Positions 7,042 through 38,088 of a DNA stretch of 64,000 bases are shown here, one piece after another. Position numbers and translations under genes: made by a program. Positions within the stretch are counted from its first letter, which is position 1. Every line of letters starts with the position of its first letter. The DNA is from an uncultured delta proteobacterium (GTDB taxonomy: Bacteria; Desulfobacterota; Binatia; UTPRO1), in NCBI GenBank assembly GCA_963846105.1, contig CAWJUT010000025.1:341579-405578 (forward strand), written 5' to 3'. The notes beneath the pieces were generated by a model. It was not told the DNA's origin. It did not search any database and worked only from the letters and a program-made list of their open reading frames with translations.

Positions 7042-9342
7042 GTGGGGGACCTCCCTCGCTATCCGCCGGCCGAATTTCGCCGCATTCCCTATGGCATCTG
7101 CATCGTCCCGGCAGCGATACGATCGCCACTCGAACTTCGGACGACGCATGATAGTACTGTCCAGGTGCATCGTCCGAAGCTCCTCTGGTTCCTCCCGCTC
7201 CTGGTCGTCCTGATCGGAGTTGCGAAGCCGATCGGATCCGCGTGGGCGGCGGCGGATTTGAGTCCGCAGGTTTCGGACGTCTCGGTATTCGTGAGTGACG
7301 TCGATCCGGGGGATGTGGCCGAAGGATGTGCCGGCGGTACGACGGCGCGCACGCTCGTCCGCTTCACGCTGCGCGCCGACAACCTCGGGCCGGACGATCT
7401 CGTGGTCGGCGCGCCGAATTGTCCTGACTGTCACGAGAATCCCGGCGTGACGTGCGGCAATCCGCTGTTCACGTGCAGTACCGCGCATGGGCATGCGCAC
7501 TTCTCGAGCTTCGTGCGGCCCGAGCTTCTCGACGAGCACGGCACGGTCGTCGCGCAAGGCTACAAGTTCGGCTTCTGCCTGCTCGATTCCATCTGTGCGA
7601 CGCCCCAGTACACCGACTGTCTCGCGAACCAGGGCATCACCGCGGGCTGCTCCGACGTCTACCTCGCCGGGCTCCCTTGCCAGTACGTCGACATCACGGA
7701 CGCCAATCTCGCGCCCGGCGTCTATTCATTGCGTGTCACGCTGGACCCGCAAGGCACTCTCGCGGAGGCCAACGAGGACAACAACACCGCGGAGGCGCCG
7801 GTGCGCATCGGCGCGCCACCTCCCACCTGTCCGGTGCACGTCGCCGCGGACGTTCCGCGGCAGATCCCCGACGATGGGTCGGTCGGCTCGACGGTGACGG
7901 TGGGCACGACCGGTCCATTGACTTCCCTGAAGGTGGTTGGGTTGCGCGGGACGCACTCCTCGGTTGGTGATCTCGAGATTCACCTCAAGAGCCCTTCCGG
8001 CACCGACGTGGTGGTGATGAATCAGGTGTGCGGCGACGACGACGATTTCGAGCTCGATCTCGACGCCGCCGCCTGTGATCCCATCGGTTGCCCGCCGACC
8101 GGCGGCTCGGTGTGGCTCCCCAGTCAGTCCCTGGCGGCATTCAATGGTGAGAACGCCGCCGGCACGTGGACGTTGACCGCCTTCGACCGGACGGCAGGCG
8201 GTACGGGGACGCTCGATGGCTGGGGATTGGAGATCTGCGTCCCCGGAACCGGCTGTCCCGTGTACACCTCGACCGACGTCCCGATGAGCATCCCCGAGCT
8301 CGGAGAGGTGCTCTCCTCGCTCGACGCTTCGCCCGGGACGATCAGCGATCTGAACGTCATCGACCTCCGCGGCACGCACTCGTTCATGAGCGATCTCGAG
8401 CTTCACCTCATCAGTCCTGCCGGGACCGACATCAATGTCATGAATCGCGTGTGCGGGACCGACGATGATTTCGACCTCGATCTCGACGACAGCGCGTGCC
8501 GGGACATCACCTGTCCGCCGACCGACGGGCTGCTCCACAAATCGAGCAGTCCGCTTTCCGCCTTCCTCGGGGAGGATGCCGGCGGCAAATGGACGCTCAA
8601 GATCATCGACCTCGCCGACGGTGACGGAGGTCAGCTCGACGGCTGGGGCCTGCAGATCTGCAGCTGCGGCAACGGCGTGCTCGATCCCAGCGAGCAGTGT
8701 GACGACGGCAACACCTCGAGCGGCGACTGCTGTTCGGCGAAGTGTCAAACCGAAGTGGTGTGCCCCGCGTGCCAGTCGTGCGACCCACTGTCGCTGAGTT
8801 GCGTCGCCGCGCCGAGGGTGGGTTGCCGCAAGCCGGTCGAGCCCAGGAAGGCGAGCCTCGCGATCTCCGACGGCAAACGGCCGTCCTCCGACCGGTTGCA
8901 GTGGCGCTGGCGAGCCGGCGCCGCCACGATTCCGAGCGACTTCGGTGACCCACGTACCGATGAGGGTTACGCGCTCTGTGTCTACGATCGATCCAAGGTC
9001 ACACCGAGCTTGCTGTATGCGGGGGGAGCCGCAGAGGGCACGTGCGGAACGGATAGATGCTGGCGCGGGCTCGGAAGGCCACCGGGCAAGCGCGGGTTCT
9101 CGTTCAGCAACCGCGCCGGTACGCCCACCGGCTTGACGAAGGTCGGGCTCAAGCCCGGTGTGCAGGGTCGTGCTCAAGCGACGGTGTTGGGGCGAGGCCA
9201 GCATCTCATCTTGCCGACGATGCCGCTTCCCCTTCCTCTCCAGGTGCAGCTCCACGGCGTCAACGCCTGCTGGGAAGCCGAATACGCCGAGGACGGCGTC
9301 AGCAGGAACGAGCCGGGCCGCTTCCGCGCCAGGGCGGAGTGA
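7042..9342 (+). CDS. Secreted multidomain protein: lysyl-oxidase-like catalytic domain, two proprotein-convertase P-domains, a Myxo cysteine-rich repeat, and the shared ~165-aa C-terminal domain
   Basis: LOX hallmarks: HxHxH copper site (STAHGHAHFSSF), Lys in KFGFCLLD, and DVYLAGLPCQYVDITDANLAPGVYSLRVTLDP...EDNNTAE (compare CQWIDITDV...NNVV of LOX). Two P-domain repeats with GTWTL/GKWTL ... LDGWGLEIC. CSCGNGVLDPSEQCDDGNTSSGDCC. C-terminus aligns with the other three copies. Confidence 0.8.
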   Translation: MGDLPRYPPAEFRRIPYGICIVPAAIRSPLELRTTHDSTVQVHRPKLLWFLPLLVVLIGVAKPIGSAWAAADLSPQVSDVSVFVSDVDPGDVAEGCAGGTTARTLVRFTLRADNLGPDDLVVGAPNCPDCHENPGVTCGNPLFTCSTAHGHAHFSSFVRPELLDEHGTVVAQGYKFGFCLLDSICATPQYTDCLANQGITAGCSDVYLAGLPCQYVDITDANLAPGVYSLRVTLDPQGTLAEANEDNNTAEAPVRIGAPPPTCPVHVAADVPRQIPDDGSVGSTVTVGTTGPLTSLKVVGLRGTHSSVGDLEIHLKSPSGTDVVVMNQVCGDDDDFELDLDAAACDPIGCPPTGGSVWLPSQSLAAFNGENAAGTWTLTAFDRTAGGTGTLDGWGLEICVPGTGCPVYTSTDVPMSIPELGEVLSSLDASPGTISDLNVIDLRGTHSFMSDLELHLISPAGTDINVMNRVCGTDDDFDLDLDDSACRDITCPPTDGLLHKSSSPLSAFLGEDAGGKWTLKIIDLADGDGGQLDGWGLQICSCGNGVLDPSEQCDDGNTSSGDCCSAKCQTEVVCPACQSCDPLSLSCVAAPRVGCRKPVEPRKASLAISDGKRPSSDRLQWRWRAGAATIPSDFGDPRTDEGYALCVYDRSKVTPSLLYAGGAAEGTCGTDRCWRGLGRPPGKRGFSFSNRAGTPTGLTKVGLKPGVQGRAQATVLGRGQHLILPTMPLPLPLQVQLHGVNACWEAEYAEDGVSRNEPGRFRARAE

Positions 9343-9398
9343 CGAATTCTTGCGATCCGCGCCGACGGCTGTCGATGAGGGTGGGGCGCGGACTGGAC

Positions 9399-9780
9399 TA
9401 GTAGTAAAGATGATAAGAATAGAAAAGAGAGGATGTGAAGAGTGAGGAAAGGAAGTGGTATGGTTAGGTTAGTGTTAGGAATGAAAGAGTATATGGAAGG
9501 TTAAGTAGAAGATATGGAGTTTGAGAGAAGATGAAAGCTATTAAGATAATTAATAGAGGAGGCTAAGGGGTAGGAGGGCAGTGTAAGAAGGTAGATAAAT
9601 GTATGAGGAGATGAGTTAATGGGAAGAAGATAATATTGAATGGGATGAAGAGGAAAAAGATTTAGAGGAGGAGTGGAGGAAAGAGAGGAAATGGGTAGTA
9701 TAGAGATAGTTGAAGTAGGTAGGAAAAAAAGATAGGATAGTAGAGGATGATCTGGAGGGAGAGATAAGAGAGCTGAAGGA
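9399..9780 (+). other. C-depleted purine-rich (GA/T) low-GC tract. On the + strand 9399..9537 has zero C, and there are only ~5 C in ~380 nt. Non-coding
   Basis: Direct base inspection. Flanking DNA is ~35% C. The reverse-strand ORF 9501..10052 translates to low-complexity P/S/L sequence. Confidence 0.6.
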
Positions 9781-10742
9781 AGAGCGAGACGGGGAGATAG
9801 AAGAGGATGGCGAGGAATTGGCGCAAAGCCTGACCGAACTCTGGCGTGATCGATGAGTATAGAATCTAGGTGCACCCGTCGTGCTTGGAGACGGCTAGCC
9901 ATATTTCGCCGGGGCCCAGCCGCGTCCGTCTTATGGCTAATGATAGGATTGGCGAGGATGTGATCAGGTTGGCCTACGTTCTGCTTAATCTCGCGACTAG
10001 CAGGATGGAAATAGCAGCTGAAGTCTGGTATTGGGAAGACGTTGTTAAGCAACTGATGGTTGCTAATAGGCCACTGAAGACACGGCGAGTGCTTGCGATT
10101 ACAGTTTAGCGGCTGCTCTTACGAGGAATGAGGGGCTTGCAGGGCGCATGCAGCGGCGCGTACTGTGGACTCATGGTGATGACAGGGATCAGACTGGCTC
10201 CTCAGGCCACGCTGACACCATGGCACGCTGTGCTGACGCTATGGGGGAGAGGAGAACAGAAAGAAGCGCGAAGGAAGGGCGGAGGTCCGATAAGGGGGTT
10301 ACGTCCCCCGGGTAAGACCCTTCATGTCGCCTATGACTCTATGACCATGCCGTGACGGGCGGACGCTCCGGTAGCATTACCTGACCGGCGCGATCCACGT
10401 CCCGCTCGATTCTTCCGCTCGATCGTACCCGGATACTCGCTGGCGAGGACACCTGGCCGTCTGGGCTCAGTTCCTCATCCGGCTTCCGGGCGTATACGTT
10501 TACAGGGGTGATGGCACGGAGGCTCGCCCAAACGGCTCAGGTACCACCTCGGGATGCTCGAGGGCGACGACATCGCTATCGGTGGAGGTCCGTAGGCGGT
10601 GCGACCACCCGAGTGGGGCACGCGCACGGGAGGCCCCCGGACGACGGCGGGATGTCGCCTGCTTTCCGACCCTGCACGCCATGAGATACGCCAGTTCATA
10701 TGCAGGAAACTATCTCGCGCAGTTGCGGGAAGGTGTCGTGCG

Positions 10743-11336
10743 ATGCGTCGACCGCGGTGTCGCGCTCGTCACGCACGTGGGTGCGCCGGCCACGTGCCAC
10801 TGTGCAGCGCCGGCGGCCGCGAGCGGCGACCTTCTCCGATCCGGCCACGCGGCACATCTGGCTGCAAGCATCCGCTGTTCGCCGGTCTGCGGCCCGTCGA
10901 AACTCGGAGGATTCTCCGCATGATGCGCGTGGAGATGGCGCCTGCCGGCGCGAGCATTCTCCGCCACGGCGAGCGCGGCGCGGAGCTCTACGTCCTCGTG
11001 AGCGGCCGTGCCGAGGTCCGGCTGGGCGAGGACCGTTTGCTCGACACCATCGTGCACGGCGACGCGTTCGGCGAAATGGCCGCGATCCGCGACAGCGCGC
11101 GCTGTGCCGACGTCATCGTCGTCGAGGATGCCGCGTATCTCGTCCTCGACGCCGCCTGCATCCTGCGTCTGGGCCGCGAGTGCCCGCGCATCGCCGCAAC
11201 GTTCTTCGAGAACCTCGCCTGCAGCTTGAGCGACCGCCTCGAACGCACGACGCACCGGCTCGCCACCGCGCGCCACGGAGGCAATCTCTCCAGCGGGACG
11301 CGCGAGATCGAAACGCAGGGAGGAGGGTCGTCATGA
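10743..11336 (+). CDS. Cyclic-nucleotide-binding (Crp-like cNMP) domain protein
   Basis: HPLFAGL...ILRHGERGAELYVLVSGRAEVRL...GDAFGEMAAIRDSARCADVIVVEDAAYLVL matches the cNMP-binding fold. The start is uncertain. Confidence 0.6.
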   Translation: MRRPRCRARHARGCAGHVPLCSAGGRERRPSPIRPRGTSGCKHPLFAGLRPVETRRILRMMRVEMAPAGASILRHGERGAELYVLVSGRAEVRLGEDRLLDTIVHGDAFGEMAAIRDSARCADVIVVEDAAYLVLDAACILRLGRECPRIAATFFENLACSLSDRLERTTHRLATARHGGNLSSGTREIETQGGGSS

Positions 11337-12067
11337 CGGCGAGCCGACAAGACGGCCTGACGGTGGGCTACGAAACCCACCGGCGAGAGCTTACGACGTA
11401 TCTGACCCGAATGGTCGTGCGCGAAGACGTGGCGCAAGAGCTGGTGCAGGAGACCGCGGTGCGCGCGCTCGAAGCCTCTCGGTTGCCCGACGATCCCCGC
11501 GAGCTCCGCGCCTGGCTCTTTCGCATCGCCACCAACCTCGCGATCGATCATCTGCGCCGTCATTCGACGTTCAAGGAATCGTTGCTCCTCGACGACAAGG
11601 AACGCGCGTCTCGAGATGGAGCGTTCGTCGCGGAGAGTCGACTGCTGCGTGGCTCGCCGGAGGTGAAGTCGATCGCGCGCGAGCACCTGGTGATTTGCTT
11701 CGCGTGTACGCTGCGCAATCTGCGGCCCGAGCAGTCGGCCGCCTTGCTGCTAAAGGAAGTCTACGGCTTCACTGTCGCCGAGACGGGCGAGCTGATGGGG
11801 GCGACGTTCGGGCAGGTGAAGAACTGGATTCAAACGGCGCGCGCAACGCTCGAAGCAAAATATGCGCAGACCTGCGCGCTCGTTGCACAGAAAGGTGTCT
11901 GCTACCAGTGCGTCGAACTCGATGGGTTCTTCGACGCGAACCGCGGCGATCCCACGCTGGGACGCCGGAGATCTAGACGCGCGCCTCGCGATCCTCAGGG
12001 AGCGAAAGGACACCCCGTTGGGAACGTGGCATCGCCTGATGATGCGTCTCGTAGACGAAGTGTTTGA
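11333..12067 (+). CDS. ECF-type RNA polymerase sigma-70 factor with a C-terminal Cys-containing extension
   Basis: ATG at 11333 overlaps the upstream stop (ATGA), with a GGGAGGAGGG RBS. Region 2 (ELVQETAVRAL...WLFRIATNLAIDHLRR) and region 4 (EVYGFTVAETGELMGATFGQVKNWIQTAR), then CALVAQKGVCYQCVELDGFF. Confidence 0.75.
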   Translation: MTASRQDGLTVGYETHRRELTTYLTRMVVREDVAQELVQETAVRALEASRLPDDPRELRAWLFRIATNLAIDHLRRHSTFKESLLLDDKERASRDGAFVAESRLLRGSPEVKSIAREHLVICFACTLRNLRPEQSAALLLKEVYGFTVAETGELMGATFGQVKNWIQTARATLEAKYAQTCALVAQKGVCYQCVELDGFFDANRGDPTLGRRRSRRAPRDPQGAKGHPVGNVASPDDASRRRSV

Positions 12068-12178
12068 CGAGACATGAAAGGATGCAGCCGAGAGGAAGTG
12101 TCGCGGCGCTCCTCGATCTGTTCGTGAAGCGGCTGGTGGTCGCTCCGCTGGGAGGCGGAGACTGACGTCGAGGCCGAG

Positions 12179-13460
12179 GTGTCGTCGGGCGGTCTGGCCT
12201 TCACGGTGCACTGCCGGCCGCAGCCGCTCGCGATATGTCTTCTGTTGGTATTGTGGCTGAGCGCATCCGAGGTCTCGGCTGACGTCCAACCCGGCGACGT
12301 CATCCGGCCATCGAGCGCGGAGCGAGTGAGGAACGTCGTATCACCGGGTGTGTTTTGGTGTGTGGAGCGTGGTCTCCCGATGAGAAGGATTGCGTCGCGA
12401 TCGTTCGAGTGGCCGCCCGCATACAAGGAAGCCACGGAGAAATATGCATCCCAAGTGCGACTCACCTCCGATGGGCTTCATCTCGAGGGCTACGTGGCGG
12501 GCGCCCCGTTTCCGCACCTCGATGCGAATGATCCGCAAATCGCCAATAAGCTGATCTGGAATTTCAACTACAAGTTCTACAACGGCGACGACTTCGACCT
12601 CCGCAACTTCGACGCTGATACTGGATCCATCACGGCCGACCGCGAGTTCGCCATCGAGCGTCACTTCCTGATCGCACACTTCCGGCGGCTTTGGTACGTC
12701 AACCGGCTCTACATCGATCCGAAGCCTAACCTAGTCCCGAATACGGAAGAGATAGCCTACAAGGAGACGCTCCACCCACTAATCGAGCCGTTCGACCTGA
12801 AGGGCGTGGGCTTTACCTACTACCGTTACCTCGACCCGGCGCGGCAGGACGACAGCTGGCTCTACTTGCCAACGCTACGGCGAGTGCGTCGGCTATCAAC
12901 CGCCCAGTGTTCGACGCACTCTTCGGCGAGGAGTTCGATCAAGACAGCTACTACGGGTACAGCGGACAGCCGGCCTGGACGGACTGGCGATTCCTCGGCG
13001 AGAAGGAGATGCTCGCGGTGTGGCAGGCACAGAATTTCCCGACGAAATGGTAGCTGCGCTCGGCTGACTGGGCATTCGACGAGGTGTGGGAGAAACGCCT
13101 GTCTACGTCGTCGAGGGGGTATGGAAACTTCCGCAGTACGCGTACTCCAAACGGGTCCTGGTCATCGACAAGGAGCTCTATGGGATTCCGTACGCGGATA
13201 TGTACGACCGGGCGGGTGAGCTTTGGAAGACCATCATCCACGCCGCCAAGGTCGGGACAAAGACGATTCCAACGGCGACGAAGGCCTCCTATCCCTACAA
13301 CATGGCGTTCGCGTCTGCGATCACGATGGTCGACGTCCAACTCGGACACGCGACGCGGGTCGCGTTGCCGAGCCACCGCTTTCCCGGCGAGGATGGGTGG
13401 TACTCAACTTTGGAGATGAAATGGGGACGACCGCAGAGCAGTTCTCGATCGCCGAACTGA
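12179..13460 (+). pseudogene. Secreted DUF1329-like protein, disrupted by frameshift(s)
   Basis: ORFs 12179..13219 and 13086..13460 are overlapping frames of one gene (IWNFNYKFYNGDDFDLRNF...YVVEGVWKLPQYAYSKRVLVIDKELYGIPYADMYDRAGELWK). The family assignment is tentative. Confidence 0.4.
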
Positions 13461-13975
13461 TTCGCGCCGGCAATTGAAAGACACGCCGGTCGCCATCTGG
13501 AGCGGCTCGCCAAGGAGCGTACTCAAACGGGACAGGTGCTCACCACGTGAAAGCCGGATACGATACAGGCACCGAGCGCCATCCTGCGGCGCTCTCTTCG
13601 GTAGACTTCCGCTGGCAGTCAAGCACAGAAGACCTGTCGCGCCTAGAGGTAGGTCGAGCTGCGCGAGTACCGGGCGGCAGAAGCCGATCACGCGCGGGCG
13701 GAGCGGCGCGAGCGGCGCACGCCCGTGGGGACACCGTCGCTGACGTCCCACTCGGCTCTGGCCCGAAGCGCGCAGTCAGGAAGTCGACGAAGGCCCGCAC
13801 CTTCGCTGAGAGATGGTGGGTGACGAATACAGCGCCCAGATCCCAGTCGAGCGATCCTCGTACGGCACGAGAACGGCATGGAGCGTAAGCGCCGCAGATC
13901 TGGACCGACGAAGAAAAGAGGTAGCTGCACGAGGCCCACGCCGCGCACCGCAGCCAGACGCAGGAGGTCACCGTC

Positions 13976-14246
13976 GTGACTGCGCAGGCTGGGCCGACCT
14001 GCACCGGCGGATCTTGCGATCGATGTCCTCGCCTGCATCTGTGGCGGCCGCCTGCGGTTGATCGCGAAGATCAAGACCCAGTCGTCGTCGAGCGCATCCT
14101 CCGCCACGTTGGCCTCCCGACCGCCACGCCCGAGCCCGCCCCGGCTCGCCCGCCGCCTGTGTCTGGCGACTGCTTCGCCTTGGAGCTCACCACCTGAGTC
14201 GTCTCACCGCGGCCCCACTTGGATCGCCGCGTCGCTCGCGCCTTGA
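13976..14246 (+). mobile_element. Possible remnant of an IS91-family (Y2) transposase C-terminus
   Basis: Reading across two frames gives C..C.RCGGRLRLIAKI...DPVVVERILRHVGLPTATPEPAPARPP. This resembles the C-terminal zinc-ribbon tail of IS91/IS801 transposases. The surrounding 13.4-14.6 kb has no intact ORF. Confidence 0.25.
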
Positions 14247-15672
14247 CGAAGCTGCCGGGCGCGTGCGCGCGTCGTGGTATGCCCGTCCACTGAAAGGCAG
14301 TGCGCTGACTCTCGACCACCGATCGTCACGGTCGAGACGCGCGGAGCCACCGAATGACGGAATGTCGAGCATCAGCGGCCGCCAGTCGACGGAGATGCCG
14401 ACCGCCTCGGCAGCTCGAAGGACGGTCACGGCGACGAAGCATACGGGCTCTCGAAGTGGACGACGCTATGAGCGGACAATCGGAGTGCAGCGGATCGAAT
14501 GCGCGAGGGACGCGTCGGCATAGCGTCGAGGCGCTCCTAAGACCATTGCGCGCCGCTCGTTGACGACGAACTCTCTCGTCACGATGAAGGTGCCGTGGGC
14601 GGAGACGTCTACTTTGACGTTGCCCGCCGCCCAGCGTCCGGTCTCGCGACGTGAAACTCGATCGTAGCCGGACCCTGCGGTCCGATCGTTTTTTCCATCG
14701 CGTCGATGACGGTTACCTTTCCGTTCTCGGTCATCCAGCGCTCCTTGAACACGATGGTGCGCGGAGGGATCCCACGGTAAAGGTGAAGAGGTTAGGGGTA
14801 GTGGAGTGGACTCAAAAGGTGGCGCAGCTCACCGGAGTTGGCTCCGCTGCTGCCGCCACGGCTACGAGCTTCGACTGCGACGTCGGTGCTCGCGTCGTGA
14901 CGGACTGTCGACAGTCCACGGCGAGACTATACGACGTCATCGCCGCGAGTTCATAGCGTGAAGCGTAAGGTAGCGACGAGCGCTCGCTGTGATAAGCGTT
15001 CGCTCGGATGCGCGCGAGTTCCGTGGCCGGCCCGGAGAGCTGCTCAGGAGTAGGCGACGAGCTCGAATGAGCGGTAGTAGTGGGTTATGCTGTGGTGCGG
15101 GAGGAGTATGCGTAGATGCTGCAGAGTTTGAACTGGTGTGGATACTATTATTAGCGCAGTAACTGTGTGGTTTTAACGAAGAGAGGTGATGATGAGCGTG
15201 AGGATTAGCAACTTCACGGCACGGGGGATGGTTATACCGGGAACGCGTTGCATGACGACGAGAAGAGACGCGAGCAGAAGCAAGTACACTACTGCCGCGA
15301 GCGTCGCTGAGGCGGGATTCCGCCAGCGTGTATGCGCGGTCCGACGATCGCGGTGAGCGCGCCGAAGGCGGCGGCCGGTGGTCCGCGGAAGAAGGCCCCG
15401 AGATCCGCCTCGTTGGAGGGCACGTTCGCGTAGCCGTAGATTTGGAAGACGAACTCATACGCGATGACGCCTGCCGCGCCGAAAGCAAGCGCCGACATCC
15501 ATTCGTACAAAGGGTCGGATGTCGTTGCCATGAACGTCGTAGCTACGCTGGGACTTGCTACAGGATGCCTGCCCAACTCCGCAAGGCGTTTGGAGATAAA
15601 TGGATTCACCTAGTCATATGCGTCTCGTAAAGCTTCTGGCGTAAGCAGCCCCGCCGTTCTAGTCTCTCGGCG

Positions 15673-17892
15673 ATGCGTGCCGGTCCCCGTCGTTCCCGTC
15701 ACCTCGTCGTGCTCGCGGCCGTGAGCCTCCTGGTGGCGCCTTCTGTCGGCGCGACCACCTATAGTGTCGGTCCCTCGGGGAGCGATGATTTCGCCAGCAT
15801 CCAGCCCGCGCTCGACGTTGCCGTCGCCGGCGACACGATCAACGTCCACGAGAAACCGACCCCGTACTTCGAAAAGATCACGTTCCCGGCGAGCGGCAAC
15901 GCAATCGACGGCCACATCACGCTGCAGGCGGCTGCGGGAGAGTCGCCCGTGATCGACGGCACGGCAGTGCCCGGCGACAACATCGTCCTCATCGACTCGC
16001 GCAGCTACGTGAAGCTCGTCGGCTTCGAGATCCGCAACAACCTCGGGGTGAACGACGGCTCGGGCGTGCGGATCCTGGGAGCCGGCTCGCACATCGAGAT
16101 CCGCGACAACCGCATCCACGACATCCGCGGCCAGCACGCCATGGGGATCACCGTCTACGCCACGCGCCGACCAGCCCATCTCGAACCTGATCATCGACGG
16201 CAACGAGATCTACGACTGCGACCCGGCTGAGAGCGAGGCCTTGACGCTTGAACGGCAACGTCACCGACTTCGAGGTGACGAACAACGTGTCCGCGACGTG
16301 AACAACATCGGGATCGACTTCATCGGCGGCGAGACCGACATCAACCCCGAACCCGACGAAGGTCGCGCGCAACGGCGTCTGTCGCGGCAACCAGGTCGAC
16401 GCGGGCGCGCGTCAGCATGGCGGGGGCTACGCGGGCGGGATCTACGTCGACGGCGGCAAGAGACATCGTGATCGAGAACAACGTCGTCACGGAGTCCGAC
16501 CTCGGCATCGAGGTCGGCGCCGAGAACAGCCGGCATCGTGGCGAGCGGGATCGTGGTCCGGAACAACGTCCTCTATCGGAACGAGAAGGCGGGCCTGGTC
16601 TTCGGGGGCTTCGACGCCGAGCGTCGGGCGCGTCCGCGACAGCTCCTTCACGAACAATACGCTCTTCGGCAACGACACCCTCGGGGCGGGCTTCGGCGAG
16701 CTCTGGATCCAGTACGCCGAGGACAACCAGGTCCGGAACAACATCTTCTTCGCGTCCGGACAACCGCGCTTGCTCACCTCCGACGCCGGCAACGTCGACA
16801 ACGCGCTCGACTACAACGTCTGGCACCGCGACGGATCGCCGGTCGAGTTCGTGTGGAACGGCACGTCATACGCGGATTTCAACGCCTATCGGCTCGCGAC
16901 CGGCCAGGACGCCAACAGCGGCTCGTTCGACCCGTGCTCGTCGACACGGTCGGCCCCACCTTCGATTTCCATCTGACGGCCGCGTCGGGCGCCATCAATG
17001 CCGGTGACCCGGCGTTCGTGCCGGGCGTGGGCGAGACCGACCTCGATGGCGGCACGCGCGTCAACGGCCCGCGCGTCGACGTCGGCGCCGACGAGGTCAC
17101 CGCCTGCGGCAACGGCGTCACCGAGCCTCCGGAGCTCTGCGACGACGGCGATCTCGAGAGCGGCGACGGCTGTGACGCCAATTGCACCCCGACGGGTTGC
17201 GGCAACGCCGATCACCACGGCTGGCGAGCAGTGCGACGACGGCAACGTGAGCGCGGGAGACTGCTGCTCGGCGACGTGTCAGTTCGAGACGACCGGGTCA
17301 CCCTGCAGCGACGGCAACCCGTGCACCACCACCGACGCCTGCACGAGCGGCGTCTGCGCCGGCGTCGAGGCGCCCGAGCCAGTTTGCCGGGTGGCGATCA
17401 CCGGCTCGCTCACGCTGCGCGACCGCTCGCCCGAGCACCGCGGATCTGCTCAACTGGAAGTGGACGAAGGGAGCAGCCACGACGGTCGGTGACTTCGGCG
17501 ACCCGATCGGCGGCGCGACGTCCTACGATCTCTGCGTGTACGACGAGAGCGCGGGCGTGCCGAGTCTTCTTCTGCGGGCGGCGCTCCCCGCCGGCGGGAC
17601 GTGCCACGGCAAGCCGTGCTGGAAGCTCGCGGGCTCGACCGGCATACGGTACGGCGACCGTGACGGGACTCCCAACGGCGTCACCAAGGCCACACTCAAG
17701 AGCGGCATCGGCGGCAAGGCGAGCGTGAAGGTCAAAGCCAAGGGCCTGAACCTCGCGATGCCGGCGCTCTCCCTCGATCAGGACACCCACGTCACCGTGC
17801 AGCTCAAGAACAGCCAGGGCGTCTGCTGGGGGTCGAGCTATCCCGCACCCGCGATCCGGAACGACAGCGCGCAGTTCAAGGACAAGCTATGA
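15673..17892 (+). CDS. Secreted right-handed parallel beta-helix (pectate-lyase/NosD-like) protein with Myxo cysteine-rich repeats and the shared ~165-aa C-terminal domain (multiple frameshifts)
   Basis: Signal peptide MRAGPRRSRHLVVLAAVSLLVAPSVGA, followed by TYSVGPSGSDDFASIQPALDVAVAGDTINV. Beta-helix repeats IRNN..NDGSGVRI, IRDNRIHD. CGNGVTEPPELCDDGDLESGDGCD and GEQCDDGNVSAGDCCSATC. Fragments 15673..16230, 16417..17007, 16538..17728, 16998..17492 and 17536..17892 lie in different frames. Confidence 0.65.
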
Positions 17893-29354: not shown

Positions 29355-29417
29355 GGGCGGGGTCGGTTGGCGACCGTTTGCTCGGCGCCGCCTTTCGGCA
29401 CATAAGCGTCAGACGCG

Positions 29418-30760
29418 ATGACGACGACGTTTCAGGAGTTCAAGCTCATTCCGGCGCTGACCGAGGCGGTGGCGGACATGGGCTACACCCGTCCGACGCC
29501 GATCCAGGCCGAAGCCATCCCGGTCGGCCTCGCCGGGCGCGATCTGATCGGCTGCGCGTCGACCGGCACCGGCAAGACCGCCGCCTTCCTGCTTCCGATC
29601 CTGCAGCGCATGCACACCGGCGCGCGCGGGAAGTGCCGCGCCCTCATCCTCTCGCCGACCCGCGAGCTGGCCATGCAGATCGACGAGCAGGCGCTGGCGA
29701 TCGGCTACCACGTCGGCATCACCGCGGTGTCGGTGGTGGGCGGCGTCGACATGCGGCCGCAGGAGCGCGCGCTGCGCGCCGGCGCGGAGCTGGTGGTGGC
29801 GACGCCGGGCCGCCTGCTCGACCACATGCGTTTCGACTACGTCGATTTCTCCGCCGTCGAGGTGCTGGTGCTCGACGAAGCGGATCGCATGCTCGACATG
29901 GGCTTCCTCCCCGACATCCGCCGCATTCTGCGCGCGCTTCCCGACCGAGCGACAGACGCTGATGTTCTCGGCGACGATGCCGCCCGAGATCCGGCATCTC
30001 GCGGGCGACATCCTGCGCGATCCCGTGACCGTCATGGTCGGGGAGTCAGAAGCCGGCGAGCGGCATCGTGCAGAGCGTCTACCCGGTGGCGCAGGAGCGC
30101 AAGGCGCCGCTCCTCACCACGCTGCTCAAGCGCGAGGCGATGCGCTCGGTGCTGGTGTTCGTCAAGCGCAAGGCGGATGCCGACCGCCTGGCGCGTACCG
30201 TCACCCGCAGCGGCGTGCCCGCGACCAGCATCCATTCCGACCGCCGTCAGGAGGATCGGATCGCGGCGCTCGAAGCGTTCCGGCGCGGGCAGTACCCGGT
30301 GCTGATCGCCACCGACGTGGCGGCGCGCGGCATCGACGTCGAGGGCATCTCGCACGTCGTCAACTTCGACGTCCCGTTCTCGCCCGACGACTACATCCAT
30401 CGCGGCGGCCGCACCGCGCGCGCCGGCGCGGTCGGCGAGGTGCTGACCTTCGTCACGCCCGAGGAAGAGCGCGATCTGCTCGCGATCGAGAAGACGATCG
30501 GCAGCACACTACCGCGCGTCATCGTGCCGAATTTCGATCACGGCACGCACGAGCACGTGCCACCGCCGACAGCGGGCTTCCACGACCGGCGGCGGAGTGG
30601 ACGCGGCGGGCGTGGACGTGAACGGGGGCGCGGCGCGCCCGCGCCCGCGACGCCGCACGCTGCGAGCACCGGTGACGGTGGCGCGCCGAGCCGTCCGCGG
30701 CGCCGGCGGCGGCGTGGCGGCCGGGGCGGCGCGACCAACGCCCCATCGGCGAAGGAGTAG
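29418..30760 (+). CDS. DEAD-box ATP-dependent RNA helicase with an Arg/Gly-rich C-terminal tail (two frameshifts)
   Basis: Q-motif, GTGKT (Walker A), VLDEADRMLDMGF (DEAD), SAT (ERLMFSATMP), HRGGRTARAG. Spans frames 29418..30305, 29962..30621 and 30068..30760. Confidence 0.8.
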
Positions 30761-37448: not shown

Positions 37449-37982
37449 TCAGCGCTCGCGTGTCGTCAAAGCCGCGACGATCGCATCGCACGCCTGATCG
37501 GCGAGCGCGGCCATCTCGTCGTCGGTACGGTCCTGAATGGGATGCGGCACGAAGACGCGCGCCACGTCCGGCATGCCGAGCGCGTCGGCCTGGACCTGCG
37601 CCGCGCCCCGGAACTCGTCGGAGGCGACGAAGACCGCCGGCTTCCCTTCACCCTCGAAGAATGTCGTGTCGTGCACACTGCACGTCGTGCACGACCCTCA
37701 ATCGGCGAGCGCCTCGATCACGAAGTCGCACTGGGTCGCGATCTGCCGGCGCAGGTCCTGCGGCGCCGGTCGCGTGAAGGTGGGCTTGCTGTAGCGCTGC
37801 ACGTCGATGCCGCGCGCGCGCAGGTGCGTCTCGAGGCGATCGAGGAACACGTCGCCGCGCGGCTTGCGGATGTCGAGCAAGCCGACGACGCCGCTGAGCG
37901 CCGCGGGGCGCCGCACCGGCGTCCGCCGGACCGGGCTGCGCTCGTCGGTCGGATCGAGCACGATACGATCACTCATGGGCAA
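37449..37982 (-). CDS. Candidate UGSC-family selenoprotein. The in-frame TGA at ~37698..37700 is read as Sec: ...FVIEALAD-U-GSCTTCSVHD...
   Basis: ORFs 37698..37982 and 37449..37676 are in the same frame, separated only by one TGA. The motif U-G-S-C is created. A 9-bp perfect hairpin (GUCGUGCAC-N10-GUGCACGAC) starts 2 nt after the UGA, consistent with a bacterial SECIS. Confidence 0.5.
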
Positions 37983-38088
37983 ACCTCGCTTGATGGTTAC
38001 GTCTTGCGTGGCGTGAAATGCAAGCCCGCTACTCGTACCCCCGTGCCCAACGTTCCTGATCGCCTGCCACCCGTGCTAGGCTCCGGCC

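Follow-up and report, generated by a model that had tools for sequence, protein, structure and literature searches.

A cytosine-poor tract in the DNA of an uncultured delta proteobacterium can be securely identified, on the evidence of its alignments, as a C-erased pseudogene of a mobile RibD_C gene. The tract lies in the window, that is, the whole stretch of 64,000 nucleotides (64 kb) that was analysed. In the alignment with an intact copy of the gene, the rewriting affects one base on one strand, starts at a junction, has a 5' to 3' polarity on the + strand and occurs in two states of intensity.

The scarcity of cytosine at 9399–9780 (+ strand), on which the preliminary description had centred, was borne out by a recount. 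The 382 nt contain A159 C5 G139 T79, while about 127 C are expected. The part said to be free of C, 9399–9537, indeed has none in its 139 nt (A58 C0 G49 T32), and the GC content, earlier put at 35–40%, comes to 37.7%. With regard to the bounds, the start was correct and the end was not, as a weaker loss of C runs on to about 10236 and possibly to about 10300. The five cytosines of the tract are found at 9538, 9563, 9579, 9752 and 9773. The longest C-free runs of the window are 9399–9537 (139 nt) and 9580–9751 (172 nt), the next one being of 35 nt. C makes up 33.3% of the whole 64-kb window, and sliding windows of 380 nt hold a mean of 126.6 ± 15 C (1st percentile 75), against 5 in the tract. 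By the same 380-nt count, the next-lowest regions hold about 75, and the binomial probability of the tract's count is about 1e-58. The GC skew is 0.87–1.0 over about 400 nt. For comparison, 201 other loci with 1.70 Mb in all have no |skew| above 0.75 in any 150-nt window and no non-repetitive run of more than 80 nt free of C or of G. The genome around the segment has 68% GC, and region-wide depletion of C is absent, since the third-position C/(C+G) is normal in the flanking genes.

The origin of the tract was found through homology. A BLAST of the tract, which had been suggested earlier as a check, identifies RibD_C-family genes on plasmids: blastn of 9343–10700 gave same-strand matches to Shinella and other plasmid genes annotated as 'dihydrofolate reductase family protein' (RibD_C, PF01872), at about 70% identity. 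This value follows from the alignment, in which almost every non-C position matches and almost every C position does not. For the ancestor search, window positions 9611–9655 were written as a degenerate pattern, in which A stands for A/C and T for T/C, and scanned over metagenome contigs. The scan found at least 120 soil-metagenome contigs. Among the matches listed, all were ordinary, C-containing intact copies; one identical 45-mer occurred in 86 of 121 matches, the copies were 91–98% identical to one another in nucleotides over about 600–900 bp, and their flanks were unrelated, with 50 to 71% GC. The closest intact copy among the matches listed, L159 (Ga0105107_10090287), was used as a proxy for the ancestor. 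It is colinear with 9394–10236 of the window, through an upstream flank with a ribosome-binding site, the full 528-nt CDS and about 250 nt downstream. The preliminary description did not include the base-for-base match of the tract to a known gene, from which it differs solely at C positions.

The close intact relatives of the dead gene all carry PF01872. Thousands of proteins belong to the family at 85% identity or more, and those with at least 89% amino acid identity bear the taxon names Vicinamibacterales, Dokdonella and Shinella. A gene shared at 91–98% identity in unrelated flanks, and under several taxon names, is therefore a promiscuously transferred soil gene. No flank homology was found between the window and any gene-carrying locus compared. 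Horizontal acquisition, which had been raised earlier, is thus upheld by the RibD_C family homology, the unrelated flanks of the intact copies and the absence of flank homology to the window. A second copy of the gene was not found in the 64 kb window (tblastn). The phage collection gave no blastn match, an intact RibD_C gene was not found in viral contigs, and plasmid blastn of 9990–10900 returned chance-level matches only.

Judging from the alignment with L159, the tract is the 5' part of a foreign segment of about 0.85 kb, 9396–10236, which contains a RibD_C/'dihydrofolate reductase family' gene together with about 60 nt from upstream of it and about 250 nt from downstream. The segment and its neighbours are laid out as follows.

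7165–9342, + strand: gene for a lysyl-oxidase/P-domain/DUF4215 protein, the upstream neighbour
9396–9399, no strand assigned: left junction, a 4-nt CTAG microhomology common to the host flank and the ancestral sequence
9399–9460, + strand: remnant of the ancestral 5' flank with the ribosome-binding region GGAAAGGAAGTGGT, every C site changed
9399–9770, + strand: zone 1, near-saturated cytosine loss, 96% of ancestral C sites changed
9461–9988, + strand: dead RibD_C/'dihydrofolate reductase family' CDS (PF01872 family), from blastn, tblastn and alignments
9771–10236, + strand: zone 2, partial cytosine loss, about 30% of ancestral C sites changed
10237–10300, + strand: C-poor, GA-rich stretch, from composition
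about 10890–12067, + strand: gene for a cNMP-binding protein and then an ECF sigma factor, the downstream neighbours

The flanking genes, described earlier as a convergent/divergent pair, are in fact both on the + strand, in tandem. With its lysyl-oxidase/P-domain/DUF4215 protein, the setting of the segment has a myxobacterial look. The best relative of the lysyl-oxidase protein in species-representative genomes (61% identity) belongs to a 'delta proteobacterium' MAG (L002), in which no conserved neighbourhood was found.

At the left junction, several boundaries coincide. On the right side of CTAG, the window and L159 are colinear; on the left side, their alignment stays at the random level. 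The gene-family homology starts at CTAG, the depletion of C sets in at the base after it, and the C content of 9343–9398 is normal. In the remnant of the 5' flank, GAGGAAAGGAAGTGGTATGG is identical to the sequence of L159 and L165. About 6 of the first 13 or so C sites, within the first 45 nt or so, are single-base deletions, which are rare afterwards.

The dead CDS aligns colinearly with the RibD_C family over the whole gene, from the ATG at 9461 to the ancestral TAA at 9986–9988 (528 nt). It contains many in-frame stops and frameshifts, the first in-frame stop being at codon 15 (TAA at 9503), and tblastn needs three frames and crosses many stops to span it. No intact ORF for the protein of about 176 aa is left. 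By its reading frame, the RibD_C gene copy in the window is evidently a pseudogene. The tract was rightly called non-coding, in that it no longer codes, yet the remains of a gene can still be recognised on its + strand. The 183-aa antisense ORF, which had been dismissed as an artefact, is one, as its database relatives are only antisense ORFs of intact copies. A G-less strand can carry only TAA stops, so a long antisense ORF can arise by chance. Zone 2 takes in the 3' portion of the dead gene and continues for 248 nt into the ancestral 3' flank. The homology to L159, L165 and L142 stops at about 10236–10251. The adjoining 10237–10300 may be a continuation of the damaged segment; the GC skew of 10200–10299 is +0.29 and the AT skew +0.42, and no significant C-tolerant alignment of 10237–10300 was found against any comparison locus. 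Outside 9394 and 10236, C-tolerant alignments did not exceed the scores of shuffled controls.

The pattern of base changes was read from the alignment with L159. At 9399–9790, there are 111 ancestral C, of which 79 changed to A, 12 to T and 10 to G, 3 were deleted and 7 were kept, giving zone 1 outcomes of A 71%, T 11%, G 9%, deleted 3% and kept 6%. Non-C sites in the same interval are identical in 277 of 287 cases (212/216 in 9459–9758). At 9791–10236, there are 131 ancestral C, with 19 changed to A, 1 to T and 13 to G, 5 deleted and 93 kept; 299 of the 318 non-C sites are identical (A 73/78, G 131/140, T 95/100). From these two spectra, the changes are thus transversions to a purine plus 1-nt deletions. 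Overall, 142 of 242 C sites are changed, compared with 29 of 605 non-C sites (P = 7e-65). The G sites are unchanged in 263 of 275 cases (12/275 changed), and the event was therefore strand-specific. The A sites are unchanged in 152 of 158 cases. The changes have the features of strand-coordinated clustered mutation, namely, one base, one strand and clustering far beyond chance.

It might be argued that an element selected for its composition is present here, such as an H-DNA/triplex polypurine tract, a G-less or C-less regulatory RNA or a protein sponge. The strand asymmetry (79% purine) and the many GGA/AGGAGG motifs on the + strand would suit it. However, at its non-C positions the tract matches a protein-coding gene in about 98% of cases, and the composition therefore comes from a sudden mutation of one base and not from selection. 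The earlier suggestion of H-DNA does not agree with the tract, as its 79% purine is interspersed with 21% T, its longest pure purine run is 17 nt and it has no mirror repeat. The suggestion of a G-less transcript or regulatory RNA had to be given up as well: Rfam gave 0 matches at E ≤ 1 over 9000–11000, and folding was no better than that of shuffled sequences (z = +1.31 for the + strand, −1.03 for the − strand), so there is no structure signal. The predicted RNA of the − strand is essentially unstructured. A search of 9300–10700 for tandem, direct and inverted repeats gave weak low-complexity matches only, with no inverted repeat reported; the direct-repeat families are short and of low identity, the longest being 30 nt. 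The scan for sigma-70 promoters and terminators over 9200–11000 returned nothing meaningful. Moreover, the C-less form is not conserved elsewhere, in the phage collection or in the protein libraries. The probability of a selected element is, in our view, close to negligible, and the tract as it now stands is most probably a functionless scar and not a working element. From the first picture of this DNA, non-coding and acquired DNA were retained, and H-DNA and RNA were dropped.

The distribution of the changes along the segment is orderly. In a likelihood scan, the proportion of changed C sites drops from 96% to 30% at one sharp change point, located between 9769 and 9773. Beyond the change point, changed and unchanged C sites are randomly interspersed (runs test P = 0.45). 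In runs of C, the first position became A in 18 of 18 cases. The later positions became A in 10, G in 6 and T in 7 cases, and none of these 23 stayed C (first versus later, P = 9e-5). Isolated C became A in 50 of 55 substitutions. In identical pentamer contexts the outcomes sometimes differ, and the process was therefore partly stochastic. The changes in zone 1 are independent of context; zone 2 has a weak excess at TC sites, of which 13/28 were changed, compared with 23/101 in other contexts (P = 0.018). When alleles common in the family are removed, 9 private non-C changes are left in the gene; 7 of them are at T, and five of these are T→A. Misalignment stabilised by dNTPs, in which the new base would equal a neighbouring base, was rejected as a general rule, with just a GGCT→GGTT tendency being seen.

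Other hypermutated copies were also looked for. None were found among the 120 metagenome loci listed. The antisense ORF led to none in protein libraries of 5.8 billion and 1.84 billion entries, and a pattern demanding non-C at all ancestral C sites found none in viral contigs. Two loci with an excess of G changes, L127 and L175, were rejected as candidates, as they are an ordinary sub-lineage with common alleles. As long as no recurrence is shown, the tract counts as a scar left by one event and not as a system.

It is proposed that the scar arose by lesion bypass. Including its variants, we give about an even chance to a mechanism in which the + strand was made in a single synthesis over a − strand with unreadable guanines, following the A-rule. 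The + strand would have been synthesised once, 5' to 3', from the left junction, on a − strand whose guanines were non-instructive. At an unreadable G, the polymerase would insert A (the A-rule) and occasionally skip, leaving a 1-nt deletion. When a second unreadable G followed immediately, the insertion would be indiscriminate (A, G or T, never C), and this random choice would represent extension from a mismatched terminus. The damage to these guanines may have been loss of the base, heavy oxidation or a bulky adduct, such as ADP-ribosyl-G of the DarT1 or pierisin type. The candidate agents, which are indistinguishable here, would be guanine ADP-ribosylation, oxidative hydantoin lesions and alkylation followed by depurination.

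On this proposal, the fully converted 370 nt would have been single-stranded when the fragment came in, as imported ssDNA or as a 3' tail left by resection, and would thus have been fully exposed to a G-specific agent. The zone of 30% change (about 465 nt) would be the duplex or less exposed part. The few T→A changes may be due to a minor loss of adenines from the − strand, with A-rule bypass. The new + strand would then be fixed by replication, following the logic of lesion segregation, and the event probably took place during the entry or integration of the foreign DNA. The kind of lesion, the timing and an ssDNA intermediate are what we infer from this pattern.

The signature of the A-rule is present in zone 1, with A at 71%, C kept at 6% and deletions at 3%, and with about 6 deletions in the first 45 nt. 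In E. coli, the bypass of a single abasic site gives 49–71% dAMP insertion and 21–68% targeted one-base deletions, depending on context (PMC4167244). The lesion-bypass mechanism is, at the same time, known here from a single example. In the Pfam scan, genes for an ADP-ribosyltransferase, NADAR, a reverse transcriptase, Ku/LigD or a TLS polymerase were not found among the approximately 55 ORFs of the window. To our knowledge, no natural lesion load so far reported comes near the density of damage to 96% of guanines over 370 nt.

Instead of being damaged, the template may have been copied under a shortage of C. In such a case, dCTP would be unavailable, or the polymerase would exclude it, and each G of an undamaged template would force a misincorporation. 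A dCTP-depleting phage-defence response, spores and stationary phase are examples of where such a shortage might occur. The specific avoidance of C, with 0 of 23 at the later positions of C runs and A, G and T otherwise even, is consistent with this, and so are the restriction to one strand, the direction and the start at the junction. The fall from 96% to 30% would then look as if the nucleotide pool or the polymerase had changed. However, misincorporation opposite undamaged G favours T (G:T wobble) far over A. T should therefore have been the main outcome opposite intact G, but it accounts for 11% in zone 1 and 1/38 in zone 2. Unreadable guanines are favoured over undamaged ones for this reason. 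Non-instructive lesions also account better for the private T→A changes and for the 1-nt deletions at C sites, and a dCTP deaminase would raise dUTP/dTTP and push the outcomes towards T. Starvation for dCTP on an intact template is, therefore, considered improbable.

Alternatively, the lesions might have been on the cytosines of the + strand, with the − strand newly made, as through an ssDNA deaminase followed by uracil excision, or through N3-methyl-C. C-specific enzymes that act on ssDNA at near 100% do exist, namely, bacterial deaminase toxins and the APOBEC family, and the excess of changed TC sites in zone 2 would be in line with them. The outcomes do not fit. A-rule bypass of abasic sites, or unprocessed uracil, gives C→T, but C→A was observed at 71% and C→T at 11%. 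The polarity in C runs, in which the first position is A and the next is random, indicates 5' to 3' synthesis of the + strand itself. The methylation of ssDNA would also hit adenines and the cytosines of the other strand, but the G and A sites are intact. Damage to the + strand is, thus, held to be distinctly improbable.

A third possibility is templated retro-mutagenesis, in which an intact copy would be transcribed and then copied by a reverse transcriptase blind to one base, the cDNA replacing the copy in the window. The information transfer would resemble that of diversity-generating retroelements (DGRs), with one base randomised and three copied faithfully, and the abrupt 5' boundary is like a run-off or a priming site. 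Against this, the 64 kb window has no second copy of the gene, and neither a reverse transcriptase nor an Avd-like gene turned up in the Pfam scan of about 55 ORFs. The mutated stretch, of 840 nt or more, is at the gene's 5' end, has stops throughout and diversifies no protein, and the replacement of 96% hardly retains the original base, unlike DGR mutagenesis. This possibility is judged to be very improbable.

The comparison with true DGRs (adenine mutagenesis, from TR to VR) leads to the same view. Both have one template base randomised and the other three copied faithfully. In DGRs, however, the base is A, and here it is C/G, as the changes are at C and 152/158 A sites are unchanged. No RVT-type match was found in the ORFs of the window, and there is no template repeat in cis and no 3' variable repeat in an intact gene. 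The mutated part is the 5' end with the upstream flank, more than 800 nt in length, and the ORF is destroyed. The tract fails every defining feature of a DGR that was tested.

Among other known systems, clustered mutation, A-rule bypass and the APOBEC hypermutation of retroviral cDNA have their logic in common with the tract. Strand-coordinated clustered mutation in damaged ssDNA has been described in yeast and in tumours. In kataegis, in resected-break ssDNA and in lesion segregation, as in the tract, one base on one strand is affected in tight clusters that start at a DNA end or junction. These are explained by lesions in a single-stranded template that is copied once and fixed by replication. 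Kataegis, however, has a few changes per kb, orders of magnitude less dense than the 96% of sites in the tract. In kataegis, the changes are of the APOBEC type, TC→T/G, whereas the tract has transversions of − strand G to T and C, and these lie in a bacterial chromosome on captured foreign DNA. The APOBEC/AID pattern itself, C→T and C→G in TC or WRC, is not what was found, C→T being 11% in zone 1 and 1/38 in zone 2.

Hypermutation by APOBEC3G of the minus-strand cDNA of retroviruses is similar in that one base on one strand of an invader is hypermutated and dead genes are left behind. The intensity also follows the time for which a region stayed single-stranded. APOBEC3G makes only C→U (read as G→A), in a dinucleotide context and at a minority of sites, whereas the tract has transversions that are almost context-free and saturating. 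In fungal RIP, a gene copy is likewise killed by dense, base-specific point mutation, but the changes are C→T on both strands, and the process needs a duplicated sequence and belongs to the fungal sexual cycle.

A-rule bypass in bacteria shares with the tract the dominance of A (71–79%), the rare insertion of C, the one-base deletions and the dependence on context. It is known from single engineered lesions, with survival under 1%, whereas the tract would have more than 140 consecutive sites in one molecule. The DarT1/NADAR system offers the sort of agent that the mechanism calls for, an anti-phage toxin that ADP-ribosylates guanine, although we know of no mutational scar of this kind that has been attributed to DarT1. 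DarT1 is G-specific, ssDNA-specific and motif-free, is able to act on every G in a substrate, and it blocks replication (PMC11543638). Neither a DarT1 nor a NADAR gene is present in the window, and in vitro, adjacent Gs are not doubly modified by DarT1 (PMC11543638). In the tract, both Gs of GG pairs are affected, unlike with DarT1 in vitro, which speaks against the lesion-bypass mechanism.

A technical origin also has to be weighed, in which sequencing, basecalling, polishing, mis-assembly or the in-vitro copying of a damaged template would have produced the tract, and the organism itself would have a normal copy of the gene or, at this site, no copy. The C-less tract is a singleton among the 120 metagenome loci listed, the protein libraries and the viral contigs. 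At least two housekeeping-type genes of the window are frameshifted, a DEAD-box helicase (with the DEAD and Helicase_C domains in different frames) and a split DUF1329 gene. They suggest indel errors, and the assembly may therefore be error-prone. The gene is also extremely abundant in soil metagenomes, inviting assembly tangles, and the 183-aa antisense ORF is apparently uncalled in the source annotation (no self-match).

Several observations speak against an artefact. The non-C bases are about 98% correct inside dense clusters of changed C, and indels are almost nil past the first 45 nt, whereas an unknown base modification would disturb the neighbouring calls. A consensus of reads from two strands should restore C from the unaffected G strand, and cross-mapped reads of abundant intact homologues would add C back and not remove it. 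The outcomes are partly stochastic in identical pentamer contexts, and both junctions lie inside a long contig. An artefact is, on balance, unlikely, though it deserves serious weight. If the tract is one, it is unusual and of relevance to the curators of long-contig MAGs.

We know of no earlier description of a saturating, one-base, one-strand mutation scar in a bacterial chromosome, or of a mutational event of such density and purity in any cellular genome. If the scar is real, one pass of synthesis replaced a single base at more than 140 sites, all of them on the same strand. The choices of the polymerase would still be legible in it: A first, a random base after a mismatch and skips at the start. 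It would mean that bacteria are able to copy a template in which essentially every guanine is unreadable, and that captured foreign DNA can be inactivated by hypermutation instead of cleavage. Compositional scars, in the form of C-less or G-less tracts, would be left behind, and these can be searched for systematically.

The scar may even record a natural guanine-directed attack on incoming ssDNA, followed by error-prone A-rule copying, which we think quite unlikely. The attacker might be, for instance, a glycosylase or a DarT1-like or pierisin-like ADP-ribosyltransferase, and its target foreign DNA that enters by transformation or conjugation or undergoes resection. If such an attack took place, it would be a bacterial counterpart of APOBEC restriction, in which captured genes are mutated to death and not cut, and more C-less or G-less tracts would be expected in the source genome and in related ones.

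The window itself holds two weaker C-poor patches of the same polarity, at 14776–14816 and 15060–15220. No homologues were found that could serve as their ancestors, and plasmid blastn of 14650–15620 gave chance-level matches only. These patches may be further examples of the scar.

The gene of the RibD_C/'dihydrofolate reductase family' is extraordinarily widespread. It is present on at least 120 soil-metagenome contigs (loci L082-L201, e.g. L159:150-770), with a nucleotide identity of 91-98% among the copies, and the flanks of these copies are unrelated, having a GC content of 50-71%. At the protein level, there are thousands of variants at 85% identity or more, the largest of their clusters having 8060 members, and the names attached to them include Acidobacteriota as well as Gamma- and Alphaproteobacteria. 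A conserved block boundary lies near L159:988 and is common to L142, another of the soil copies, and the window, where the dead copy of the gene spans 9461-9988. The gene behaves like a highly mobile cassette.

Throughout window positions 9343-15630, the coding signal is weak and the non-coding gaps are long, as if the region were decaying or acquired. A DUF1329/LolA-like gene at 12179-13460 is divided between two frames:

12179-13219, first part of the DUF1329/LolA-like gene (profile positions 6-203)
13068-13460, second part of the same gene (profile positions 264-342)

Two smaller features are also poor in C on the + strand. A patch of 35-41 nt at 14776-14816, rich in GA/T and surrounded by normal DNA of 65-70% GC, contains a 35-nt run without any C. 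Read on the - strand, its codons lack G, and among them is a TAA which breaks an ORF that goes on as ...VFKERWMTENGKVTVIDAMEK. This patch may be a small instance of the type of damage found in the main C-depleted tract (9399-9780); a homologue with which to test this was sought, and none was found. The second C-poor stretch, at 15060-15220, has about 12% C and a GC content of about 47-50%. Its GC skew reaches +0.54 (P ~5e-10, computed for 15040-15260), and the stretch matches the main tract in polarity. An ancestor of this stretch was sought, and none was found. The stretch is located immediately downstream of a truncated ORF:

15292-15531, - strand, ORF with a premature end, identical to the 80-aa database protein P0121

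Elsewhere in the window, a DEAD-box helicase gene (29406-30760) is broken by a frameshift, which is positioned between about 30050 and 30075 at a site having no long homopolymer. The gene is either a real pseudogene or the product of an assembly indel error. Its parts are as follows:

29406-30305, DEAD domain, in one frame
30029-30760, Helicase_C, in a different frame

In a UGSC-family gene on the - strand (37449-38075), two ORFs are linked by an in-frame TGA at 37698-37700. This TGA is immediately followed by GGG TCG TGC, giving the reading U-G-S-C; it is very likely a selenocysteine codon, downstream of which a SECIS hairpin is expected, and the gene very likely a selenoprotein gene.

The window also encodes a large secreted protein:

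7165-9342, lysyl-oxidase domain, two proprotein-convertase P-domains and a DUF4215 cysteine-rich repeat

Paralogous C-terminal modules are found at several places in the window (e.g. 1154-2107 and 16472-17728), and are present in related Myxococcota and Binatia MAGs too.
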